NCBI GenBank assembly: GCA_050730875.1
Contig: JBOHNX010000001.1
Span: 141,827-205,826 of the forward strand
Length of the DNA stretch: 64,000 bases
DNA from: Candidatus Saccharimonadales bacterium
GTDB lineage: Bacteria; Patescibacteriota; Saccharimonadia; Saccharimonadales; EFPC-124
Direction: 5' to 3'
In this document: in pieces, positions 1,843-40,727 of the stretch
Layout: each line of letters opens with the position of its first letter
How positions within the stretch are numbered: position 1 is the stretch's first letter
The notes under the pieces: model-generated
What the model was told of the DNA's origin: nothing
The model's input: the letters and a program-made list of their open reading frames with translations, nothing else
Database searches by the model: none
Position numbers and translations under genes: made by a program

Positions 1843-2944
1843 ACTAAAACGCCATGACCCAGATCTAAAATCGTATTTCATAACCGACCGCAAATTTGGT
1901 CCGCAGGCTCATGAAATTATGGCCAAGGCACCATTCGAAGTCGAGCTGAAGCGGATTTACGCTGGTAAACTGCGTCGATACCACCGAGTTGCGTTGTGGC
2001 GGCAGCTTATAGATGTCCGCACAATGGCAAAAAACTTTGGCGATCTATTTCTAGTAGGTCTCGGTATTATGCAGAGCATAAAATTCATTATAAAGGTGAA
2101 GCCGGATGCGGTGTTTACCAAGGGTGGCTTTGTGTGTTTGCCGGTTGGCTTAGCCGCAAGATTATTGGGTATTCCTCTTGTTATTCATGACTCCGATTCG
2201 CACCCTGGCCTGACAAACCGTATTTTAGCCAAGCACGCTAAAGTCATAGGCACTGGTGCGCCGGTTGAACACTACCCGTATCCTAAGGGTCGCACGCATT
2301 ATGTTGGTATTCCGGTTGATCGAGCATTTCGTCCAGCTGACAGCAAAAAACAGCAGCAACTTAAGGCTGAGCTTGGTTTACACGATACAACTAAGCCGCT
2401 TCTTGTGGTTACCGGCGGCGGGCAGGGCGCACGCAACTTAAATCGAGCAGTAGTAAATGTAGCCAGTCAGCTGGTGAACAAACTCGCCATTTTGCACGTT
2501 ACTGGTCAAGGCAACTACAATGAGGTGCTGAAAGCAGCGCCCGAGCATGTCGACTACATTGTGAAGCCGTTTGTACCTGGGCTAGCAACGGCGTTTCGGG
2601 CGGCAGACATGGTTATTACGCGCGCTGGCGCTACTACTATGGTCGAGCTGGCTGCTGCCGCCAAACCTGTCATCATTGTGCCGCACCCTAACCTGGCTGG
2701 CGGCCATCAGCTAAAGAACGCGGCAGTATTTAAGCAAGCTGGTGCGGCAGTGGTGCTTGACGAAGACGAGCTTATTTTGCACCCGCTTCGCCTTAAAAAA
2801 GCAGTGGTAGAGCTCCTGGAGAAGCCAGCAGTGCGCGCAAAGTTGGGTAAGGCGTTGCACCGCTTCGCAAAGCCTTACGCAGCGCTTGACATGGCAGCGT
2901 TGATTGTCGAGGCTGCTTGTGTAAACAAAAAACAACGTGGTTAA
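1775..2944 (+). CDS. murG: UDP-GlcNAc:lipid I N-acetylglucosaminyltransferase MurG
   Basis: N-terminal GGGSGGHVTP loop and C-terminal RAGATTMVELAAAAKPVIIVP...GHQLKNA, both typical of MurG. dcw order supports the call. Confidence 0.93.
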   Translation: MTIVCAGGGSGGHVTPVLAVLHELKRHDPDLKSYFITDRKFGPQAHEIMAKAPFEVELKRIYAGKLRRYHRVALWRQLIDVRTMAKNFGDLFLVGLGIMQSIKFIIKVKPDAVFTKGGFVCLPVGLAARLLGIPLVIHDSDSHPGLTNRILAKHAKVIGTGAPVEHYPYPKGRTHYVGIPVDRAFRPADSKKQQQLKAELGLHDTTKPLLVVTGGGQGARNLNRAVVNVASQLVNKLAILHVTGQGNYNEVLKAAPEHVDYIVKPFVPGLATAFRAADMVITRAGATTMVELAAAAKPVIIVPHPNLAGGHQLKNAAVFKQAGAAVVLDEDELILHPLRLKKAVVELLEKPAVRAKLGKALHRFAKPYAALDMAALIVEAACVNKKQRG

Positions 2945-2958
2945 GCTACACTAGTACT

Positions 2959-3873
2959 ATGTTCTGGCGAAAACAAAAAGAACCCGTTCGACAGCCACGG
3001 CTTATGGCCGGGCAAGATGATTACGTGTTTCGACGGAGCCGGACGCTAACGGGCAGCGTGTCGTCGCAGGTTACTGCAACGGCAGAAAAGCGCGGGCAAC
3101 TGAAGACCGACCGGTTAAAGTTGCACGAGCTAAAGGCGCATCGCCGGCATGTGCTGCGGCTGCTCGGCGTGGTTTTGCTGGCCTTGGGCGTGATGGTGTT
3201 TTTGCTTGCGAATTTTATTGTTTCACCACAGATTGCCAGTGCAGAACCAGGCGTTCGCCAGGCTGATGCTTCGAAGTACCACCAAGCTATTTACACGTAT
3301 TTTGGTGATCATCCGCTGGAGCGTTTTGGGTTTGCACTGAATGCCGAAGAGTTTCAGGAGCATCTTAAGCAGTCGCACGATGAGGTGCGTAGCGTAACGG
3401 TTGAGCGTGATTGGTATGGTGGTGACGTGCGTTTTATTTTGTATTTTCGGCAGCCGCTTTTGGTGTGGCGGAGTGCGGGCCAGCAGTTTTATGTAGATAA
3501 TCAGGGTGTTGCGTTTGACTACAATCATTTTGTTGAGCCGACGGTGGCGGTGGAGGACCAGTCCGGTATTACACCGGATCAAGCTTCGGGGGCAGTGGCG
3601 TCTACCCGATTCCTTGGTTTTTTGGGGCGTACGGTGGGTGCGATTAACTCCTATAACAAGGGTAAGGTCGTTGCGGTTATTATTCCGCGGTCGACTCGGC
3701 AAATTGATATTAAACTGGAGGGTCGCGATTATATTATTAAGACGCATATCGACCGCGATCCCCTGCAACAGGCTGAAGATATTGCTAATGCACTCAAGTA
3801 CTTCGATGTGCATGGTATTAAGCCGCAGTATGTTGATGTGCGGGTGGCGCACAAGGCGTTTTATAAGAATTAA
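2959..3873 (+). CDS. ftsQ: FtsQ/DivIB-like cell-division protein (single TM + POTRA-like domain)
   Basis: ORF 2917..3873; the Met at 2959 (MFWRKQ) is the more likely start. It has a TM helix (LLGVVLLALGVMVFLLANF) followed by a POTRA-like segment (VRSVTVERDWYGGDVRFILYFRQPLLVW...YVDNQGVAF). It lies after murG. Confidence 0.7.
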   Translation: MFWRKQKEPVRQPRLMAGQDDYVFRRSRTLTGSVSSQVTATAEKRGQLKTDRLKLHELKAHRRHVLRLLGVVLLALGVMVFLLANFIVSPQIASAEPGVRQADASKYHQAIYTYFGDHPLERFGFALNAEEFQEHLKQSHDEVRSVTVERDWYGGDVRFILYFRQPLLVWRSAGQQFYVDNQGVAFDYNHFVEPTVAVEDQSGITPDQASGAVASTRFLGFLGRTVGAINSYNKGKVVAVIIPRSTRQIDIKLEGRDYIIKTHIDRDPLQQAEDIANALKYFDVHGIKPQYVDVRVAHKAFYKN

Positions 3874-4023: not shown

Positions 4024-4305
4024 ATATCCTGGGGTATGCGGAAGAGGGTAGGGCGGAGGAGCTTTACTTACTAGGAGTCGCAAAGCTAAAAAGCCTACGG
4101 CATCACCCGCTCGATGGATAACTTATTGCTTGTGTTGATTAGCGGCAGAAGCAGACTACTCCGCTGCTCTCTTTTATGTTCTAATTTTGTTCTTGCTTTA
4201 AGTTATAGACCCACTCCAATATCGAAAAAACTATATAAAAATATTAAATTCAAAAAAAGCAAATAGTGTAGGGCGGAGGGTGGTAGGGAGTCGTGAAAAA
4301 ATATT

Positions 4306-4527
4306 ATGAAAATACAAAAAAGCAAATTTGCAAATGCGACTGTGGAAAAGTCAAATTACGACATGGCACGTTTTATGGGGTGCTGCCAGTCGGCTGGCGA
4401 CCTAAGCCGGTCGACAGTACAATACAAGTTTAAATGTAGCGGTGCGCGTAGTGTAATTACAGCCACATTAACGCCAAACTCCCGGAAAACTCCCCTAGTA
4501 AGACGATGTACCAATCATCTTCAGTAA
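4306..4527 (+). CDS. hypothetical small protein (very uncertain; alternative 46-codon GTG frame at 4293..4433)
   Basis: This is the only ORF of at least 60 aa in the 955-bp gap. GGAGG/GGGAG motifs lie upstream (4276-4290). A perfect 11-bp hairpin (4532-4542/4559-4569) follows the stop. No recognisable family. Confidence 0.2.
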   Translation: MKIQKSKFANATVEKSNYDMARFMGCCQSAGDLSRSTVQYKFKCSGARSVITATLTPNSRKTPLVRRCTNHLQ

Positions 4528-4828
4528 AATAATGTAATGTCGTAAAAGATATATTGTGCGACATTACATCTATATTAAACTATGTACACTTTCATCCATC
4601 TTCAGCCACCAATTTTCTTGTGTTTCGTCTATGATTTTTATGGCTCCTCATTCTTCTACTCGCCCGGGCTGCGTTCTCGCTTTAAACGAGTCATTATGGT
4701 TGTTTGATTACTTTATGTAGATTCATTTTGACTGCTAAACCAATTAACAGGGGTCGACCTCTATTATCGAGTATTCGATAGATTGTGTTCGTATTTTGTT
4801 CGTTTTATTTCTGTATGATTATTACTCC

Positions 4829-7525
4829 CTAGCGTAAGCGAAGTACAAAGTCGTTGTCTTGTTGCTCTTGTTGGGGCTGCGGCTGTTGCTGTTGTGGAGT
4901 GGGGTTTTGAGTCTTAGAACCGCCTCGTTTGCGTCCGCGCGAACGGGAACGCTTGCCGCTACCTGGCGTTGCTTGCTGGCCTGATTGTTGCTGTGGAGCG
5001 GCTGGTGCGGGCTGTGGGGGCTTTTGCGTTTGAGCGGCGGGCGCTGTTGTGGGTTGTTTTGATGGTGGCTGTGTCTGTGGGGCAGTAAATCGACCAGACG
5101 CGGCGGGGATGAGAGTTTGTTTAATCACCTTCTGAATTTCGGCCTCAACTTCTGCCCGAGGTCGCGAGTAATGGCGACGTGTGTTTTCGATAATCTGCGG
5201 CGAGTAGTCATTTTGCGCGGCTGGGAGGGTTAGGGTGGTTGCAGAGAACGCCGGTGCCTTCTCTCCCCTAATGACCATGCTAATGACAAAATGTCGGTTG
5301 TGCATTTGCATGAGGTCAGCGGCTTCAAACTGCGGTTCGAACTGCTTAGAAAGCAGTGGCGCATCGTCGGGGCTGACCCGGAAGGAAATGACAGTACCAA
5401 CGTTCCCGAATACGGCATCGCGTACGGTATCGTTCATCTGTGAAATATATTGGTTGGCTACAGTTAGGTTAAGGCCGTATTTACGTGCCTCACTTAAGAT
5501 AGTTGCAAACGAATCGGTCGCGAAGTTTTGGAATTCGTCCACGTACAGGTAGAACGGCTTGCGATCTTCGATGTGCGGAATATCAGAACGGCTCATGGCG
5601 GCCAGCTGGATTTTGGTTACTAGGAACGAGCCCAGCACGGCGGCGTTGTCTTCCCCTACTAACCCTTTGCTCAGGTTCACGATCAAAATTTTGCCTTCGT
5701 CCATGATTTTACGGATGTTAAAAGTGCTTTTTGGCTGGCCAATGATGTTACGGATGATTGGATTAGCAGTAAAGGCACCCACCTTGTTAAGCACTGGGGC
5801 AATGGCTTCGGCAGCGAATTTATCGTTCCAGCTCGCAAATTCTACCGTCCAGAACTGGCGCACTACGGCGTCATCGACATATGTTAGGACCTCGTTGCGG
5901 AACTTTTTATCGGTGAGCATGCGGGTGATATCGAGTAGTGTTGTGTTTGGATAATCCAAAAGCGCTAAGATTGTGTAGCGCAAGATGTATTCCAAACGTG
6001 GCCCCCAACTTTCGCCGAACATGCGTTTTAGGACACCAATAATTTCAGAACTAATATTGTTCTTCATGGCTGGATTGATGACTTCCATCGGGTTGAAGCC
6101 AATCGGGTATGCTGTGTCTGCTGGGTTAAAGTAGATCACATCCTTGGCGCGCGACTGAGGGATAAACCGCAGGTTGTTAATGGCAAAGTCGCCATGTGGA
6201 TCGATAATGGCGAAACCGTGGTTATGGAAGACGTCGCTGAGTGCAAACAGCTCCAACAGACCAGATTTACCAGTACCGGTTTGGCCAATGATATACACGT
6301 GACGGCCGCGGTCTGAACGGTACAGGCCAAATTGCTGGTTAATCCCGCGGAAGTTCGTTAGACCGAACGCACTTATTTCGGCATCGGCCTCGACACCGAT
6401 GACAACTGGCAGTTTTGCAGGTGGTTCGGCTGTTTTTGAGCTTGCCCAGACGATGTTCGGTGTCTCCACGTTGGTGTGTGGTAAGTGGAAGACACTGGCG
6501 AGCTCTTCGATATTTAAAATGTAGCCGCGATCAATAAAGAACCGCGCACGATATTGCGCCAGGCCGTCGGGCGAGAACGAAGAGTTCTTCATCTGGAAGC
6601 CATTCAGGTTCGTACTGTTGAACTGTTTGAACGTACCAACAATCGCTTGCATGCGCAGTCGGGCGGTTTGTTGGCTGTTACCCAAATACGTCAGCCGTAT
6701 TTTTACTTGGTAGCCTAATTTAATGCTCTTCTTCTCTACTTCGGTGATCCGGCCTTTTTCGCGTTCGCTAATTTCTGCCGGGCCACTGCTGCCTTGATTT
6801 TCTGGTGGTTTCCAGAGAGCTTCAAGCGCACGCAGCAAATAATAGCCAAGACCACCGCCGAGGGCAGCACTACTGCTCCCTCCCCCACTCTTCGCACGGG
6901 CTGTGTAGCGACTGGCTTTGCGGTGCCAGTCATCCGAAATTGGGCGCGCCAATACCTGAATCCACATTTCTTCGCCGGTTTCTTCGAGTTTGGCTAGTGT
7001 AGCGGTCACGGCTGCTAAGGGGTCAACCTCGAAGCTCTGGAATGTTTTAATCGGTAGCACTTCGTTATCGATTAATGAAAGTTCAGCGGTATGCACAACC
7101 TGCTGTTTGATATCGCGAGCTGCGTAATCTTCTTCTGCAACATGAATCTGCACAGTTGGATATTGCGCGTAAATTTGGCCTTCAACAAAGTTTTGCAGGT
7201 ATGTCGGCACCCATACGTAAAAGCGTATGCGTTTGTCGATGGCGGCGATTTCAAAGCTGATGTGTTCCTGCAAGCCGCCCTGCGTGGCAAGCTCACGCTT
7301 CGAGCGCAAAATACCGTGCAAACTGGCGAACATTTGCTCGGCTGCCAGTTCTTGCTTCTCGTTTGTACGAGGGATCTCGAGGATTAATAGGGTGTGGTCA
7401 AGATCACGAACCACCTTAGCTCGACGGTTGTTCCGAAGGGCTAAGTAACCAAGGACTGCGGCGATTGGCAGCCAGATGTACCACTTGCTCAGCAAGCCGA
7501 AAATCAACGAGAGCACCACGTCCAT
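4829..7525 (-). CDS. membrane-anchored VirD4/TraG/TraD-like (FtsK-HerA superfamily) ATPase with P/Q-rich C-terminal tail
   Basis: 898 aa. N-terminal TM helix. Walker A YIIGQTGTGKSG. Walker B-like FYLYVDEFQNF. Coupling-protein-like LNLTVANQYISQ. The last ~110 aa are low-complexity P/Q/G/R. Confidence 0.75.
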   Translation of the reverse strand: MDVVLSLIFGLLSKWYIWLPIAAVLGYLALRNNRRAKVVRDLDHTLLILEIPRTNEKQELAAEQMFASLHGILRSKRELATQGGLQEHISFEIAAIDKRIRFYVWVPTYLQNFVEGQIYAQYPTVQIHVAEEDYAARDIKQQVVHTAELSLIDNEVLPIKTFQSFEVDPLAAVTATLAKLEETGEEMWIQVLARPISDDWHRKASRYTARAKSGGGSSSAALGGGLGYYLLRALEALWKPPENQGSSGPAEISEREKGRITEVEKKSIKLGYQVKIRLTYLGNSQQTARLRMQAIVGTFKQFNSTNLNGFQMKNSSFSPDGLAQYRARFFIDRGYILNIEELASVFHLPHTNVETPNIVWASSKTAEPPAKLPVVIGVEADAEISAFGLTNFRGINQQFGLYRSDRGRHVYIIGQTGTGKSGLLELFALSDVFHNHGFAIIDPHGDFAINNLRFIPQSRAKDVIYFNPADTAYPIGFNPMEVINPAMKNNISSEIIGVLKRMFGESWGPRLEYILRYTILALLDYPNTTLLDITRMLTDKKFRNEVLTYVDDAVVRQFWTVEFASWNDKFAAEAIAPVLNKVGAFTANPIIRNIIGQPKSTFNIRKIMDEGKILIVNLSKGLVGEDNAAVLGSFLVTKIQLAAMSRSDIPHIEDRKPFYLYVDEFQNFATDSFATILSEARKYGLNLTVANQYISQMNDTVRDAVFGNVGTVISFRVSPDDAPLLSKQFEPQFEAADLMQMHNRHFVISMVIRGEKAPAFSATTLTLPAAQNDYSPQIIENTRRHYSRPRAEVEAEIQKVIKQTLIPAASGRFTAPQTQPPSKQPTTAPAAQTQKPPQPAPAAPQQQSGQQATPGSGKRSRSRGRKRGGSKTQNPTPQQQQPQPQQEQQDNDFVLRLR

Positions 7526-37118: not shown

Positions 37119-37205
37119 GCCGCGGTGGCGGAATTGGTAGACGCGCTAGACTCAAAATCTGGTGAGCATCTGCTCGTGCCGGTTCAAGTCCGGCCCGCGG
37201 TACCA
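37119..37205 (+). tRNA. tRNA-Leu (anticodon CAA), long variable arm, CCA encoded
   Basis: GCCGCGGUGGCGGAAUUGGUAGACGC D-arm. Anticodon loop CUCAAAA. T-arm CCGGUUCAAGUCCGG. Confidence 0.92.
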
Positions 37206-37210
37206 CAATA

Positions 37211-37240
37211 AAAAGCCTTACGTTTTTCGTAAGGCTTTTT
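37211..37240. terminator. bidirectional intrinsic terminator
   Basis: AAAAGCCTTACG/CGTAAGGCTTTT stem flanked by A and T runs. Confidence 0.75.
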
Positions 37241-37245
37241 ATTTT

Positions 37246-38148
37246 TTATGCCGCCTCTTCCTTGGGTAGGAGCAGTTGCACGACGAGGCCGCTCGCTGCA
37301 TTCAATACTGCCGTTTCTGCTGGGAGCAGCTGATTGTCGCGTGCTTCGTGGACCATGAGCGGTAGCAGCGCTGCATAGTCCTCTATTGTGATGTCTTGGA
37401 TATCGGGTTGTTTGTAACGCAGCCTTTGCTGGCGCCGCCTTATGTGTGTGACAAGGTCGTGTGCGTAAATGACCTTGATTGGCGGTTCATATTCCTTATT
37501 GGTAGGTGCAGTTTTGACTTCTCTGGGTATTTTGATATCTGGACCTATGGCGTACAGATCGTGATTCTTGGGTTGGATGTGCGACGCTTCCCAGCTGGGT
37601 GATGAGGGATACAACAGATATTTAGATTGCCGCGTGCGGGCCGAAAGTCCCATAAAAGCTATCTCTGCATACTGCGATGGAGGACAGAGCGCATCTGGCC
37701 TGTTGTCACGCTGGCTATATTCAATAACAGCGCCGAGTGTTGTGTATAAATTATCGAGATCCTCGGGGATTATCTCTTCCCTATGCGCTCGTTTTTTAAA
37801 CACTGGCAAATATGCGCACAGGATTGTGGCACCGAGGCGTATTGCCGGAGAAACCTCCCCTGCCCTTGCCTGCATGGGTAGCTGTAATAGCCGCGCCGCA
37901 TCTTCTAGGTGCAAGTCGCGAATTTCGTCAGAAACTCCGTTAGTCTGGCATAGCGCATAATCTACCTGCGCCCAGGCTGAAAGGTATCTGCCGGACGCAT
38001 TGGTGCGAAATTTGTACCGATCCATCGCCTCTAAACAAAAAGCGGCTGGCAAGTGTTCTGCCAGCCGCTGCATTTCGGGCCGAGTCGCGTGCGGGCCCGG
38101 CACTTCACATCCTTTGAATTTGCCGAGTTCTGCTGTCGCGGTAACCAT
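37246..38148 (-). CDS. hypothetical protein, PD-(D/E)xK-like motif, paralog A
   Basis: 300 aa. The core AEIAFM...SSPSWE...NHDLY-x13-REVK...KVIY aligns without gaps to the neighbouring paralog. Confidence 0.5.
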   Translation of the reverse strand: MVTATAELGKFKGCEVPGPHATRPEMQRLAEHLPAAFCLEAMDRYKFRTNASGRYLSAWAQVDYALCQTNGVSDEIRDLHLEDAARLLQLPMQARAGEVSPAIRLGATILCAYLPVFKKRAHREEIIPEDLDNLYTTLGAVIEYSQRDNRPDALCPPSQYAEIAFMGLSARTRQSKYLLYPSSPSWEASHIQPKNHDLYAIGPDIKIPREVKTAPTNKEYEPPIKVIYAHDLVTHIRRRQQRLRYKQPDIQDITIEDYAALLPLMVHEARDNQLLPAETAVLNAASGLVVQLLLPKEEAA

Positions 38149-38177
38149 TAGCGTTATAGTAGAGCATCATCTGGGGT

Positions 38178-39062
38178 CTAGGCAAGGGCTTTGTCTCGTT
38201 TTTGCTGAGTTTCGATCATGACAATAAGCTCGCGACTGGCAAGTGTGAGGATGTTCTGTTTTTTTCGGCTGCCTCTTTCTGAGAGCTCGTTTCGGATGAG
38301 TTTTGGCAAAAAGTCACCGTCACTAGCAGTTTGAGCACCAACGCGACTGCGTACTCTTGCGAGTAGTTCTTGGTAGTATATGACGACAACCGACTTTGCG
38401 TACCTGCGAGTGTTGGGGTGTCGATTGAATTTTACTTGTATGGGCACTTTGTCCATATCTTGAAGTAGATATAAGTCGTGGTTTAGTCGAACTATGCTGC
38501 TCTTCTCTTCCCGAGGAGAGGCTATCCATGGTATGTAGTTAGGGTCGCCGGTTCTAAGCAGGAGATACATTACTTCCAGCTCGGTCCTCTTGCCCTTAAT
38601 ATCTGATTTTTTCTGTGTTTTTTGTGGATCCAGCGCTAAGATTAGTTCGCCTAGGTCTCGAGATATTTCCAGTATATTTCCAGGAGTGATCGGTTCGCGA
38701 CTACAGCGAGCTCTAAAAAGCGGCTCAAAACACTTGATGGTGGCTGCTTCGGTTACGGGGAGTTCATCGAAGGTGTCTTTCGCCCTAAGTACTTCATCAA
38801 CAACCGCAAACGCTTCGTTCATCTGTTTTTCGACGAACCGGCTGTAAAATTCCTGTTCGTTTGCAGACAGCGCAAGGTCCAAGCATGCAAGCGCGTAACG
38901 AGTGCTTTGGTCACGACTGTTTTCGCGCGACTTATCGGCGTATTTACTAAGGCCGAGTACACAAAGTTGTTCAGAGATTCCGAGGGGGCCTAGGTAAGTT
39001 TTCTTATCGGGGCACGCGGCGCCCTGAAGGTCGGCCATGCATACGCCGCAATCACTACGCAC
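38178..39062 (-). CDS. hypothetical protein, PD-(D/E)xK-like motif, paralog B
   Basis: 294 aa with a GTG start and a GGAGGGG RBS. The core is TELEVM...ASPREE...NHDLY-x13-IQVK...VVIY. Confidence 0.5.
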   Translation of the reverse strand: MRSDCGVCMADLQGAACPDKKTYLGPLGISEQLCVLGLSKYADKSRENSRDQSTRYALACLDLALSANEQEFYSRFVEKQMNEAFAVVDEVLRAKDTFDELPVTEAATIKCFEPLFRARCSREPITPGNILEISRDLGELILALDPQKTQKKSDIKGKRTELEVMYLLLRTGDPNYIPWIASPREEKSSIVRLNHDLYLLQDMDKVPIQVKFNRHPNTRRYAKSVVVIYYQELLARVRSRVGAQTASDGDFLPKLIRNELSERGSRKKQNILTLASRELIVMIETQQKRDKALA

Positions 39063-39138: not shown

Positions 39139-39927
39139 TTATAAAAGGCTGGTCGTGAGAGCTTCGAACAATTTTTGCTGGTGCTGCGTGGCATAGACAC
39201 TGGCTTTGGCGGCGACGCTACCGCGCCAGATGAGCATTGGCTCGTCCCACGGCGTGCTACTTACCTCTCCATCTTTGGCGATGAGCAGCTGGTTTTGATG
39301 GAAAACCACCAGCGTACTTTGGTATGTCAGCGTGAATTTGTGCAGCGCCTCTACAAGGTGCAGCAGTTGCATGCTAAAGAGGACGGTTTTGGGATAATAA
39401 ACACTTTGAAAGAGTTTTTGCAGTTGTGCCAGTGTGACGATAAATATCGTTTTTTCATGATGCAGCAACGCAGGCCAAGCGGCTTTAATAAGATCTACTG
39501 CGTCGCGGGTAAAGATTGTGAGTTTATCGGGGAAATCACCAAGTAGCTGCTCGTAAACGATGGCGGTTTCGCTATTGCGGCCAGCATCGCCAATGAATAG
39601 TAACCCGTCCGCCCAAGCCGCGGCAGCTTTGAGTTGCGGCAGGGCGTCTTTGGTAATGCCGCCAGATGCGTTTGTGGGCACAAAGACGCAATCAAGTACA
39701 GTTGGGTCAATAGCTTTTTTGAGCGCGTCCGGCAACACGACGCGACACTCCCCTATGCCGGCTTTGGCGGCATCTTGGTAGGCCTGCGCAACCGCTGCAA
39801 AACCGTGGGCGTTGCCGCCGATGATCAGCAATTTTCCAGCTAGGGCTTTTTGCTCGGGCTTTTGCCACTCAATATCCGGGAAGAGTGGTTTGCCAGGTTC
39901 TTGCCGGTGCCAGTATTCGTGCATCAT
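39139..39927 (-). CDS. YjeF-C/carbohydrate-kinase-like protein (NAD(P)HX dehydratase-like, divergent)
   Basis: GKLLIIGGNAHGFAAVAQAYQDAAKAGIG...VLPDAL resembles the YjeF_C N-terminal pattern. The C-terminal motifs are degenerate. Confidence 0.4.
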   Translation of the reverse strand: MMHEYWHRQEPGKPLFPDIEWQKPEQKALAGKLLIIGGNAHGFAAVAQAYQDAAKAGIGECRVVLPDALKKAIDPTVLDCVFVPTNASGGITKDALPQLKAAAAWADGLLFIGDAGRNSETAIVYEQLLGDFPDKLTIFTRDAVDLIKAAWPALLHHEKTIFIVTLAQLQKLFQSVYYPKTVLFSMQLLHLVEALHKFTLTYQSTLVVFHQNQLLIAKDGEVSSTPWDEPMLIWRGSVAAKASVYATQHQQKLFEALTTSLL

Positions 39928-39929
39928 GG

Positions 39930-40727
39930 CTAAATATCGAGCGTTATGCTCACTGGGCAGTGGTCCGAGCCCATAACATCGGCATGGATTTCGGCTGCTT
40001 TTACTTTATCTTTCAGTGCGTTCGAGACTAAAAAGTAGTCGATGCGCCAACCAACGTTGCGGGCGCGGGCGTTGGCCCAATGGGTCCACCAGCTGTAATG
40101 GCCGTTGCCCTCGGTAAAGATACGGAAGGTGTCAGCGAAGCCGGCGTCAATAAAGTTCTGGAAGCCCTCGCGTTCTTCCTTGGTGTAGCCTTTTTTGCCT
40201 TCGTTCGGCTTTGGTCGAGCGAGGTCATCTGGCGTGTGGGCAACGTTGAGGTCGCCACAAAAAACAACCGGCTTTTTCTTTTCTAGCTGCTTGCAATAGG
40301 CCAAAAAGGCTGGATCCCAATGCTTGTGACGCAGTGGAATTCGGCTAAGGTCGTCCTTAGCGTTCGGCGTGTAAACTGTCACCAAATAAAATTTCTCATA
40401 CTCAGCAGTAATAACGCGGCCTTCTTTGGCGGAATCACGCGTTTGTTCATCTACAAATTTGTATTTTTTTGCGAAATCTTCTGGAAAGCCATTAATAATG
40501 GCCAGCGGTTTGATTTTGGTAAAAATCGCGGTGCCGCTGTAGCCCTTCTTTTCGGCCGAATTCCAATATTCCTCGTAATCAGGCACGTCAATTTCCGCCT
40601 GACCTTTTTCGGCTTTGGTTTCTTGCAGGCATAGAATATCTGGCTTATGTTCTTTTATAAATGGCAAAAAAGTTTCTTTTTTAACGACAGCTCGAATACC
40701 GTTTACATTCCACGAGTAAATCTTCAT
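39930..40727 (-). CDS. xth: exodeoxyribonuclease III
   Basis: MKIYSWNVNGIRA...LCLQETK...GDLNVAH...SDHCPV. Confidence 0.93.
   Translation of the reverse strand: MKIYSWNVNGIRAVVKKETFLPFIKEHKPDILCLQETKAEKGQAEIDVPDYEEYWNSAEKKGYSGTAIFTKIKPLAIINGFPEDFAKKYKFVDEQTRDSAKEGRVITAEYEKFYLVTVYTPNAKDDLSRIPLRHKHWDPAFLAYCKQLEKKKPVVFCGDLNVAHTPDDLARPKPNEGKKGYTKEEREGFQNFIDAGFADTFRIFTEGNGHYSWWTHWANARARNVGWRIDYFLVSNALKDKVKAAEIHADVMGSDHCPVSITLDI

Follow-up and report, generated by a model that had tools for sequence, protein, structure and literature searches.

The tRNA-splicing endonuclease EndA is a module that occurs alone, as catalytic and structural paralogs, or fused with one dead half. In the nuclease HhaI, a helix alpha-A precedes strands beta-1 to beta-3, with an Asp starting beta-2 and a Lys ending beta-3 within the motif SD-X11-EAK (PMC7026639). 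Members of the PD-(D/E)xK superfamily are hard to detect by sequence-based and even by structure-based methods, and RecC is an inactive homolog of RecB (PMC3424549). Here we present a computational analysis of two tandem open reading frames (ORFs), ORF A and ORF B, located in a 64,000-nucleotide stretch of a Candidatus Saccharimonadales genome (GenBank assembly GCA_050730875.1, contig JBOHNX010000001.1, positions 141,827 to 205,826 of the forward strand; hereafter the window). A first-pass annotation, made from the sequence alone, had proposed that they form a PD-(D/E)xK-like nuclease pair integrated next to a tRNA-Leu gene, with one active and one degenerate copy. Both genes belong to an uncharacterised, Saccharibacteria-specific orphan family that is usually single-copy, whose conserved residues are predicted to be arranged as in PD-(D/E)xK nucleases and whose tandem pair appears to be inherited with the chromosome.

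The two genes and their homologous cores are as follows, positions being those of the window and lengths being given in amino acids (aa):

37246..38148, minus strand: ORF A, the tRNA-proximal paralog, 300 aa, or 285 aa with the GTG at 38103 taken as start
38178..39062, minus strand: ORF B, the tRNA-distal paralog, 294 aa, with a GTG start
38340..38609, minus strand: conserved core of ORF B (aa 152-241), comprising the E161/R170 helix, a short strand, the SPREE turn, NHD, a beta hairpin, strand 226-229 and a helix
37429..37692, minus strand: homologous core of ORF A (about aa 153-240), EIAFMGL…SPSWE…NHDLY…KIPREVK…KVIY

Arranged head to tail on the minus strand, A and B are true tandem paralogs of about 300 aa, as first proposed (BLASTP E=2e-14, 31% identity over 139 aa), and all the motifs initially listed as common to them are present, namely E(I/L)xxM, SPxxE, NHDLY, (E/Q)VK 13 positions past the Asp, and V-I-Y. 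The claim that their cores align without gaps holds for the stretch from the Glu helix to the (E/Q)VK block only, the BLASTP alignment having 9 gap positions over the 139-aa core. The GTG start of B at 39062 is backed by an upstream AGGAGG and by homologs with the same N-terminal DCGVC motif. Two starts are candidates for A, an ATG at 38148 without Shine-Dalgarno sequence and the GTG at 38103 behind AAGGA, the latter being the gene caller's choice (285 aa, database copy P0001; P-numbers designate proteins from the HMMER search described below, and L-numbers the recovered loci).

The family looked tiny in a word-indexed search of 5.8 billion proteins, which retrieved only A and B themselves, one of these self-matches being annotated as a hypothetical protein of a Candidatus Saccharimonadales metagenome-assembled genome (MAG), and two Saccharimonadales relatives. 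By contrast, an exhaustive HMMER search with a four-sequence family profile against representatives of clusters at 50% identity revealed hundreds of clusters: 274 representatives passed E<=1e-3 and 135 passed E<=1e-10, most having a length of 280-340 aa. To locate family loci, a degenerate DNA pattern encoding NHDxY-x6-KxPx[QE]xK was used, which captures about 30% of the family. This pattern yielded 22 loci in 185,579 reference genomes, 19 of them with a family gene (16 labelled Saccharibacteria, Saccharimonadales, Nanosynbacter or Patescibacteria, and 3 labelled 'bacterium'), the other three (Psychrobacter, a Bacteroidia MAG and one further MAG) containing no convincing family gene. It also yielded 28 loci in metagenome contigs, 24 of them with a family gene, and, within that same limit of sensitivity, no match in 2.9 million viral contigs. 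All taxon-labelled loci with a family gene were from Saccharibacteria or Patescibacteria, the rest being labelled 'bacterium' or metagenome contigs.

Neither A nor B matched anything in Pfam, NCBIfam (none above the gathering threshold), PADLOC, PHROGs or PDB sequences. When 100 members were searched, Pfam at E<=10 returned singleton matches only, with no recurrent family and none from the PD-(D/E)xK clan; PHROGs gave singletons without any consistent match, and profile searches of the PDB with the family found nothing. The defence-system comparison suggested in the first-pass annotation was equally negative, PADLOC returning five singletons among the 100 members. That no two-gene system of this layout has been described, as also stated at that stage, is true, mainly because the pair comes from a lineage-specific orphan family that is usually single-copy.

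Conservation was assessed on a 100-member alignment, with per-domain counts taken from 157 aligned domains (residue numbering is that of ORF B). The core is dominated by D196 (99%), by R184 (98%) and E185 (97%) of the SPREE turn, and by N194, H195, Y198 and K205 (96% each), followed by E161 (92%) and R170 (85%) of the Glu helix, K211 (91%), P207 (87%), Y221 (83%) and E186 (82%). Position 209 is Q in 80% and E in 9% of members (Q/E 89%). Outside the core, E31 (95%), E62 (84%, D in the rest), R119 (96%) and E259 (82%) are conserved in the N-terminal helices. The pattern E…D…x12…(Q/E)xK is strongly conserved family-wide.

ORF B matches 16 of 16 consensus positions (E161, R170, SPREE 182-186, NHD 194-196, Y198, K205, P207, Q209, K211 and Y221). 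ORF A matches 13 of the 16, with E instead of Q at 209 and SPSWE instead of SPREE: it retains the E, NHDxY, K, P, E-V-K and Y without the near-invariant R184 and E185. R184 is present in 154 of the 157 domains, two of the three exceptions being ORF A and its identical database copy, and ORF A is the sole member without both R184 and E185. On this alignment, Q-x-K is the family norm, the ExK copy (A) the outlier and B the canonical copy. Since Q is the consensus and B is fully canonical, the original reading of the ExK copy as active and of the QxK copy as degenerate is reversed. Q-x-K is present in active PD-(D/E)xK enzymes such as HinP1I and TnsA.

Unequal modules are found elsewhere in the family. 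Nine fused proteins of 590-690 aa (P0010, P0043, P0078, P0086, P0091, P0095, P0108, P0111 and P0123) each contain two full-length copies of the domain. In all nine, one half retains the E161/D196/Q209/K211 set, with an exception of detail in P0123, where the intact half is N-terminal and positions 161 and 209 are both K. Q209 and K211 are missing from the other half of each of the nine, often together with E161 or D196. The degenerate half is N-terminal in eight of the nine, and these eight still keep R184, E185, Y198 and K205, while the degenerate C half of P0123 can be aligned only up to N194. The loss of Q209 and K211 alongside the retention of R184, E185, Y198 and K205 is what would be expected if the first set were catalytic and the second structural. 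Asymmetric two-module assemblies are thus a recurrent feature of the family, and the idea of an active copy joined to a degenerate one survives for the fused proteins. Both copies of the tandem pairs of L020 and L023 keep E161/D196/Q209/K211 as well as R184/E185/Y198/K205, and neither A nor B of the window has lost the E/D/(Q/E)/K set.

An AlphaFold2 model of ORF B was built from the 100-sequence alignment (predicted local distance difference test, pLDDT, 91.6; predicted template modelling score, pTM, 0.91), superseding an earlier model from four sequences (pLDDT 67.8) that gave uninformative Foldseek matches. It comprises seven helices over residues 35-170 (the last, 152-170, bearing E161 and R170), a two-residue beta bridge at 179-180, the SPREE turn at 183-186, a hairpin of strands 197-201 and 204-211 that carries Y198, K205, P207, Q209 and K211 with D196 opposite Q209, and a strand 226-229 followed by three helices up to residue 293, the first of which spans 230-241. 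From the strand register, D196, Y198, K205, P207, Q209 and K211 would be exposed on one face. E161, within helix 152-170, takes the place of the acidic residue of the first core helix of the superfamily; D196, directly ahead of strand 197-201, that of the Asp at the N-terminus of the second core strand; and Q209-x-K211 lies at the end of strand 204-211, facing D196, with Q as a variant of the canonical acid and E-V-K in ORF A. The succession of elements, alpha-beta-beta-beta, fits the definition of the PD-(D/E)xK superfamily (PMC3424549) save for the helix between beta-3 and beta-4, which is missing.

A nuclease mechanism for the family is plausible, if unproven, and we favour it tentatively. 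The protein would consist of a mainly alpha-helical scaffold of about 290 aa with a small beta hairpin displaying E161, R184-E185-E186, N194-H195-D196, Y198, K205, Q209 and K211, and would most likely function as a metal-dependent phosphodiesterase (DNA or RNA nuclease). Its putative site would resemble that of PD-(D/E)xK enzymes, with a Glu from the preceding helix, an Asp starting beta-2 and Q/E-x-K ending beta-3. A dimer is probable, in which case one-gene lineages would form a homodimer, the tandem pair an A:B heterodimer, and the fused forms an internal pseudo-dimer with one intact site. We infer fold assignment, catalysis, substrate and dimerisation alike. We also counted for this reading that xth, encoding a DNA-repair nuclease, is among the co-directional genes directly upstream, both in the window and at L023.

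Several observations weigh against a nuclease. The strongest invariance lies outside the canonical tetrad, at R184, E185, H195, Y198 and K205 (each in at least 150 of the 157 domains). Conservation is lower at E161, Q209 and K211 (134-138 of 157), and KDKR or EDSK variants occur in some members with a single domain. The model has no helix between beta-3 and beta-4, and its predicted beta-1 is merely two residues long. No sequence profile ties the family to PD-(D/E)xK or to any other family (Pfam, PDB profiles, hhalign), and the median isoelectric point (pI) of 6.2 is atypical for nucleic-acid enzymes. The Foldseek search proposed initially, run with the pLDDT 91.6 model, retrieved no nuclease: the lowest E-values were 0.37 for PDB and 0.49 for BFVD, and the top matches were TPR, 14-3-3 and designed helical repeats with template modelling scores of 0.34 or below. 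The restriction-endonuclease fold first assigned to the pair thus stands as a conserved and fittingly placed E…D…(Q/E)xK pattern, without the profile or structural match that it called for. Because the superfamily is known to evade detection, these negative searches weaken the nuclease reading without being fatal to it.

A weak resemblance to Csm6/CARF (Foldseek probability of about 0.1, and one of 100 members with a PADLOC E=0.0016) was taken as noise from the helical region. HEPN (Rx4-6H), HD-domain, His-Me finger and GIY-YIG assignments were dropped by motif reasoning, their spacings or required residues being mismatched.

The observations against a nuclease leave a real possibility that the family is a non-nuclease enzyme or binding protein of novel fold, in which the cluster of R184, E185, N194, H195, D196, Y198 and K205 would act on a protein, a peptide or a small molecule from a TPR-like scaffold, the E…D…QxK resemblance being coincidental. 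Such a protein would account for the failure of every profile and fold search to find a nuclease, for fold matches that are all insignificant and consist solely of helical-repeat peptide binders, for best-conserved residues that differ from the PD-(D/E)xK tetrad and for the acidic-to-neutral pI, while the conserved charges outside the core (E31, E62, R119 and E259) suggest a site formed by the whole protein. However, the placement of E161, D196 and Q/E209-x-K211 matches the PD-(D/E)xK layout exactly, with a D-to-Q/E spacing of 13 that is typical of tight hairpins, and E161, D196, Q209 and K211 are the residues lost in the degenerate fused halves; the silence of the searches also loses weight in a superfamily that escapes sequence- and structure-based detection (PMC3424549).

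The coding sequence of ORF A also contains a potential RNA structure:

38041..38069, minus strand: terminator-like hairpin towards the 5' end of the ORF A coding sequence (codons 27-36), with a 12-bp stem including 8 G-C pairs, the loop AACAC and the tail UUUUGUUU

This hairpin, within the first 110 nt of the gene, has a folding free energy of -28.8 kcal/mol (z -3.7), and 0 of 200 shuffled sequences fold as well. Terminator-like hairpins with U-rich tails are also present in the 5' coding region of A-type genes at L005, L008, L030, L004, L013, L017, L018, L019, L034, L045, L020 (3916-4818) and L023 (4457-5362). In 12 of 29 related A-type genes, a perfect hairpin of 8-11 bp and the U-run behind it occupy the same codons, 10-11 codons ahead of the conserved SAW motif; the hairpin of the window lies about 19 codons further upstream than this position. 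The stems vary in sequence between loci yet remain complementary, and other genes encode a near-identical peptide there with non-pairing codons. Across the 29 genes taken without selection, pairing is seen in 59.6% of cells; shuffles give 52.7 +/- 1.6, none of 500 attaining the observed value, and the true hairpin register outscores all slid registers. This suggests an RNA element within the coding sequence in some lineages, which could serve as an attenuator or a processing site. One arm of the ORF A hairpin is also one copy of a 15-nt direct repeat, GCGGCTGGCAAGTGT (14/15 identical; 38042-38056 and 38232-38246), the other copy lying in the 3' end of ORF B beside a promoter-like site (minus strand, 38242-38215). 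Chance alone would produce about 0.4 such pairs in this 4-kb region, and the repeat is possibly meaningless.

Extending the nuclease reading to this element, the family might represent a new Saccharibacteria-specific nuclease branch, or a new catalytic fold on a helical scaffold, that evolved from homodimers to heterodimers and to fused single-site pseudo-dimers, with an expression controlled by the hairpin of its own coding sequence, perhaps cleaved by the enzyme itself (autoregulation). Taken as a whole, we consider this scenario unlikely.

The recovered loci fall into three genomic contexts: the tRNA-Leu loci, which include the window (group a), the str operon (group b) and the vicinity of rplS (group c). 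Group (b) consists of about 10 loci from genomes and about 12 from metagenomes, in which a single family copy is embedded in the order rpoC … rpsL(S12) - rpsG(S7) - family gene - variable orphans - fusA(EF-G), every gene having the same orientation. The insert, found in one Saccharibacteria clade, combines the family gene with varying orphans that have no Pfam match (for example 341 aa and 221 aa, 685 aa, 338 aa or 230 aa) at L013 (5107-7998), L022 (1167-6381), L026, L037-L040, L046, L047 and L050. In group (c), a single copy lies near rplS, RNase HII and YraN (L001, L006 and L021). In Southlakia epibionticum, S7 is directly followed by EF-G across a 466-bp gap without any gene in between (PMC10633639, Table S1), so the family is not universal; sequences bearing its motifs are likewise absent from the supplements of the Cell 2023 paper on S. 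epibionticum.

The recurrence of the S12 - S7 - family gene - EF-G order, together with the conserved 5' hairpin of many genes, which suggests an expression tuned relative to ribosomal genes, raises the alternative of a translation- or ribosome-associated factor (an RNase, an RNA-binding or an RNA-modifying protein), of which the window pair would be a relocated duplicate. We consider this quite improbable: the str-operon position is restricted to one clade, others having the gene at tRNA-Leu/sortase or rplS/RNase HII, S7 directly abuts EF-G in S. epibionticum, the same slot also accommodates unrelated variable orphans and may simply tolerate insertions, and the family has no similarity to any known translation factor.

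In the window, the surroundings of the pair include the following features:

37119..37205, plus strand: tRNA-Leu(CAA), convergent with ORF A, whose stop codon is 40 bp away
37207..37243, no strand assigned: 16-bp inverted repeat with A/T runs on either side, separating the tRNA from the ORF A stop codon
39139..40727, minus strand: two upstream genes in the same orientation, one for a 262-aa protein (39139-39927), the other xth, encoding exonuclease III (39930-40727)

The adjacency to tRNA-Leu and the proximity of xth and pyrH, both pointed out from the outset, are real, and the convergent tRNA-Leu(CAA) recurs in L011, L020, L023 and L029. The inverted repeat is probably a bidirectional intrinsic terminator. 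Beyond the tRNA lie gltX and the genes of a DUF3048 protein, a DUF4367-like protein, a PEGA-domain protein and a sortase, and on the other side the 262-aa protein, xth, pyrH and smpB, all of which were judged to be housekeeping neighbours. Orthologs of the 262-aa gene and of xth also lie upstream of the pair in L023. The 262-aa protein, which sits between xth and the pair, is 53% identical to its L023 counterpart (2578-3363). It belongs to no Pfam family, and only its N-terminus gives weak matches, to models of YjeF-C / NAD(P)H-hydrate dehydratase (E about 0.08). Its gene has the same orientation as xth and the pair and is separated from them by short gaps, as would suit an operon.

Group (a) shares the arrangement DUF4367-like gene, PEGA gene, sortase, convergent tRNA-Leu(CAA) and family gene(s), and comprises the window, L020, L023, L011 and L029. 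The PEGA gene is present in all five loci and the DUF4367-like gene in all but L029, whose contig ends within the PEGA gene. Besides the window, L020 and L023 have the full tandem pair. L011 has one clear family copy and, between it and tRNA-Leu(CAA), a very divergent 400-aa ORF (4262-5461, minus strand), a 7-bit relative that keeps E…NVDLIAID…IQVK…KYD and has lost REE, H and Y; by its motifs and position, it is probably a strongly diverged tRNA-proximal paralog.

The group (a) genomes are themselves divergent, xth being 61%, sortase 40-47% (L011, L020 and L023) and PEGA 29-39% identical. ORF A is closest to the proximal copies of L020 and L023 (E 1e-30 to 1e-35, against about 1e-6 for the distal copies), while ORF B goes with the distal copies according to its position and to an approximate neighbour-joining tree, BLAST alone giving no separation from the proximal ones. 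With A orthologous to the proximal copies and B grouped with the distal ones, the duplication is older than the divergence of these lineages. Sequence change in the family far outpaces that of the neighbouring genes, the proximal copies of L020 and L023 being 31-35% identical to that of the window, against 61% for xth and 47% for sortase; between L020 and L023, identity is 23% for the distal copy and 62% for the proximal copy.

No second copy of the tRNA 3' end (18-25 nt, up to 3 mismatches), and hence no att repeat, was found within the 64-kb window, no integrase or mobility gene was present among the neighbours examined, and the guanine-cytosine content across the pair (0.46-0.53) is the same as that of its flanks. 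Since the synteny of tRNA-Leu and family gene is kept in divergent genomes, the locus is not an island, and we are highly confident that the pair consists of vertically inherited, lineage-specific paralogs forming a stable chromosomal feature. The integration hot spot or defence island initially envisaged is therefore abandoned: the pair does co-occur in other genomes, L020 and L023, in a chromosomal tRNA-Leu/sortase context and not in defence islands. A mobile two-gene nuclease or defence module integrated at tRNA-Leu, with an active ExK and a degenerate QxK subunit, would be in line with the tRNA adjacency, the two-gene paralog layout, the fast evolution of the family and its patchiness at the str operon, from which it is absent in S. 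epibionticum, but is largely refuted and has become barely credible given the tRNA-Leu(CAA)/family gene/sortase/PEGA arrangement of four other loci, the missing att repeat and integrase, the unchanged base composition, the absence of PADLOC matches for A and B and of pattern matches in viral contigs and the canonical status of the QxK copy. For genome scanning, the lesson is that adjacency to a tRNA alone is no sign of an integrated island.

ORF B carries a further element at its N-terminus:

38961..39050, minus strand: four-cysteine N-terminal motif of ORF B (C5, C8, C17 and C34)

This C-x2-C … C … C motif, present in about 40-50% of family members (among them ORF B, P0003, P0004, P0006, P0009 and P0029) and absent from ORF A and the str-operon clade, may bind zinc as a candidate zinc knuckle.

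Saccharibacteria are minute organisms living on other bacteria; they and other members of the Candidate Phyla Radiation have very small genomes with a large share of genes without assigned function, and this family offers a good structural and biochemical target, with hundreds of clusters, a position between S7 and EF-G in one clade, a confident model without Foldseek neighbour in the PDB and enzyme-like invariant residues. If it is truly a nuclease, it would represent a lineage-specific nucleic-acid enzyme in organisms that take up, and depend on, host material, and the series from single through paired to fused forms would clearly illustrate the evolution of asymmetric dimers.

Among known systems, YraN/UPF0102 is a true PD-(D/E)xK protein of the same Saccharibacteria genomes (L001 and L021) with a similarly small E…D…ExK core; however, hhalign gave a 3% probability against the family core, aligning the Glu helix alone, and Pfam recognises YraN but none of the 100 members of the family. 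With HhaI/HinP1I/MspI-type nucleases and Hjc-type resolvases, the family shares in the model an acidic helix followed by beta-1 to beta-3, with an Asp starting beta-2 and x-K ending beta-3 of an antiparallel hairpin, as well as a short spacing from Asp to (E/Q), HD-X12-Q(V/I)K against SD-X11-EAK in HhaI. Unlike these enzymes, it shows no detectable sequence or Foldseek similarity to them, sets its core inside a helical scaffold (about 150 aa N-terminal and 60 aa C-terminal), adds the near-invariant R184, E185, N194, H195, Y198 and K205 to the canonical motif, lacks the beta-3/beta-4 helix and has neither a methyltransferase partner nor a restriction-modification context. Finally, although it has no sequence relationship with EndA or RecB/RecC, and although neither copy of the window has lost its E/D/(Q/E)/K set, the family resembles these systems in occurring as single, paralogous and fused forms, the latter with one degenerate half.

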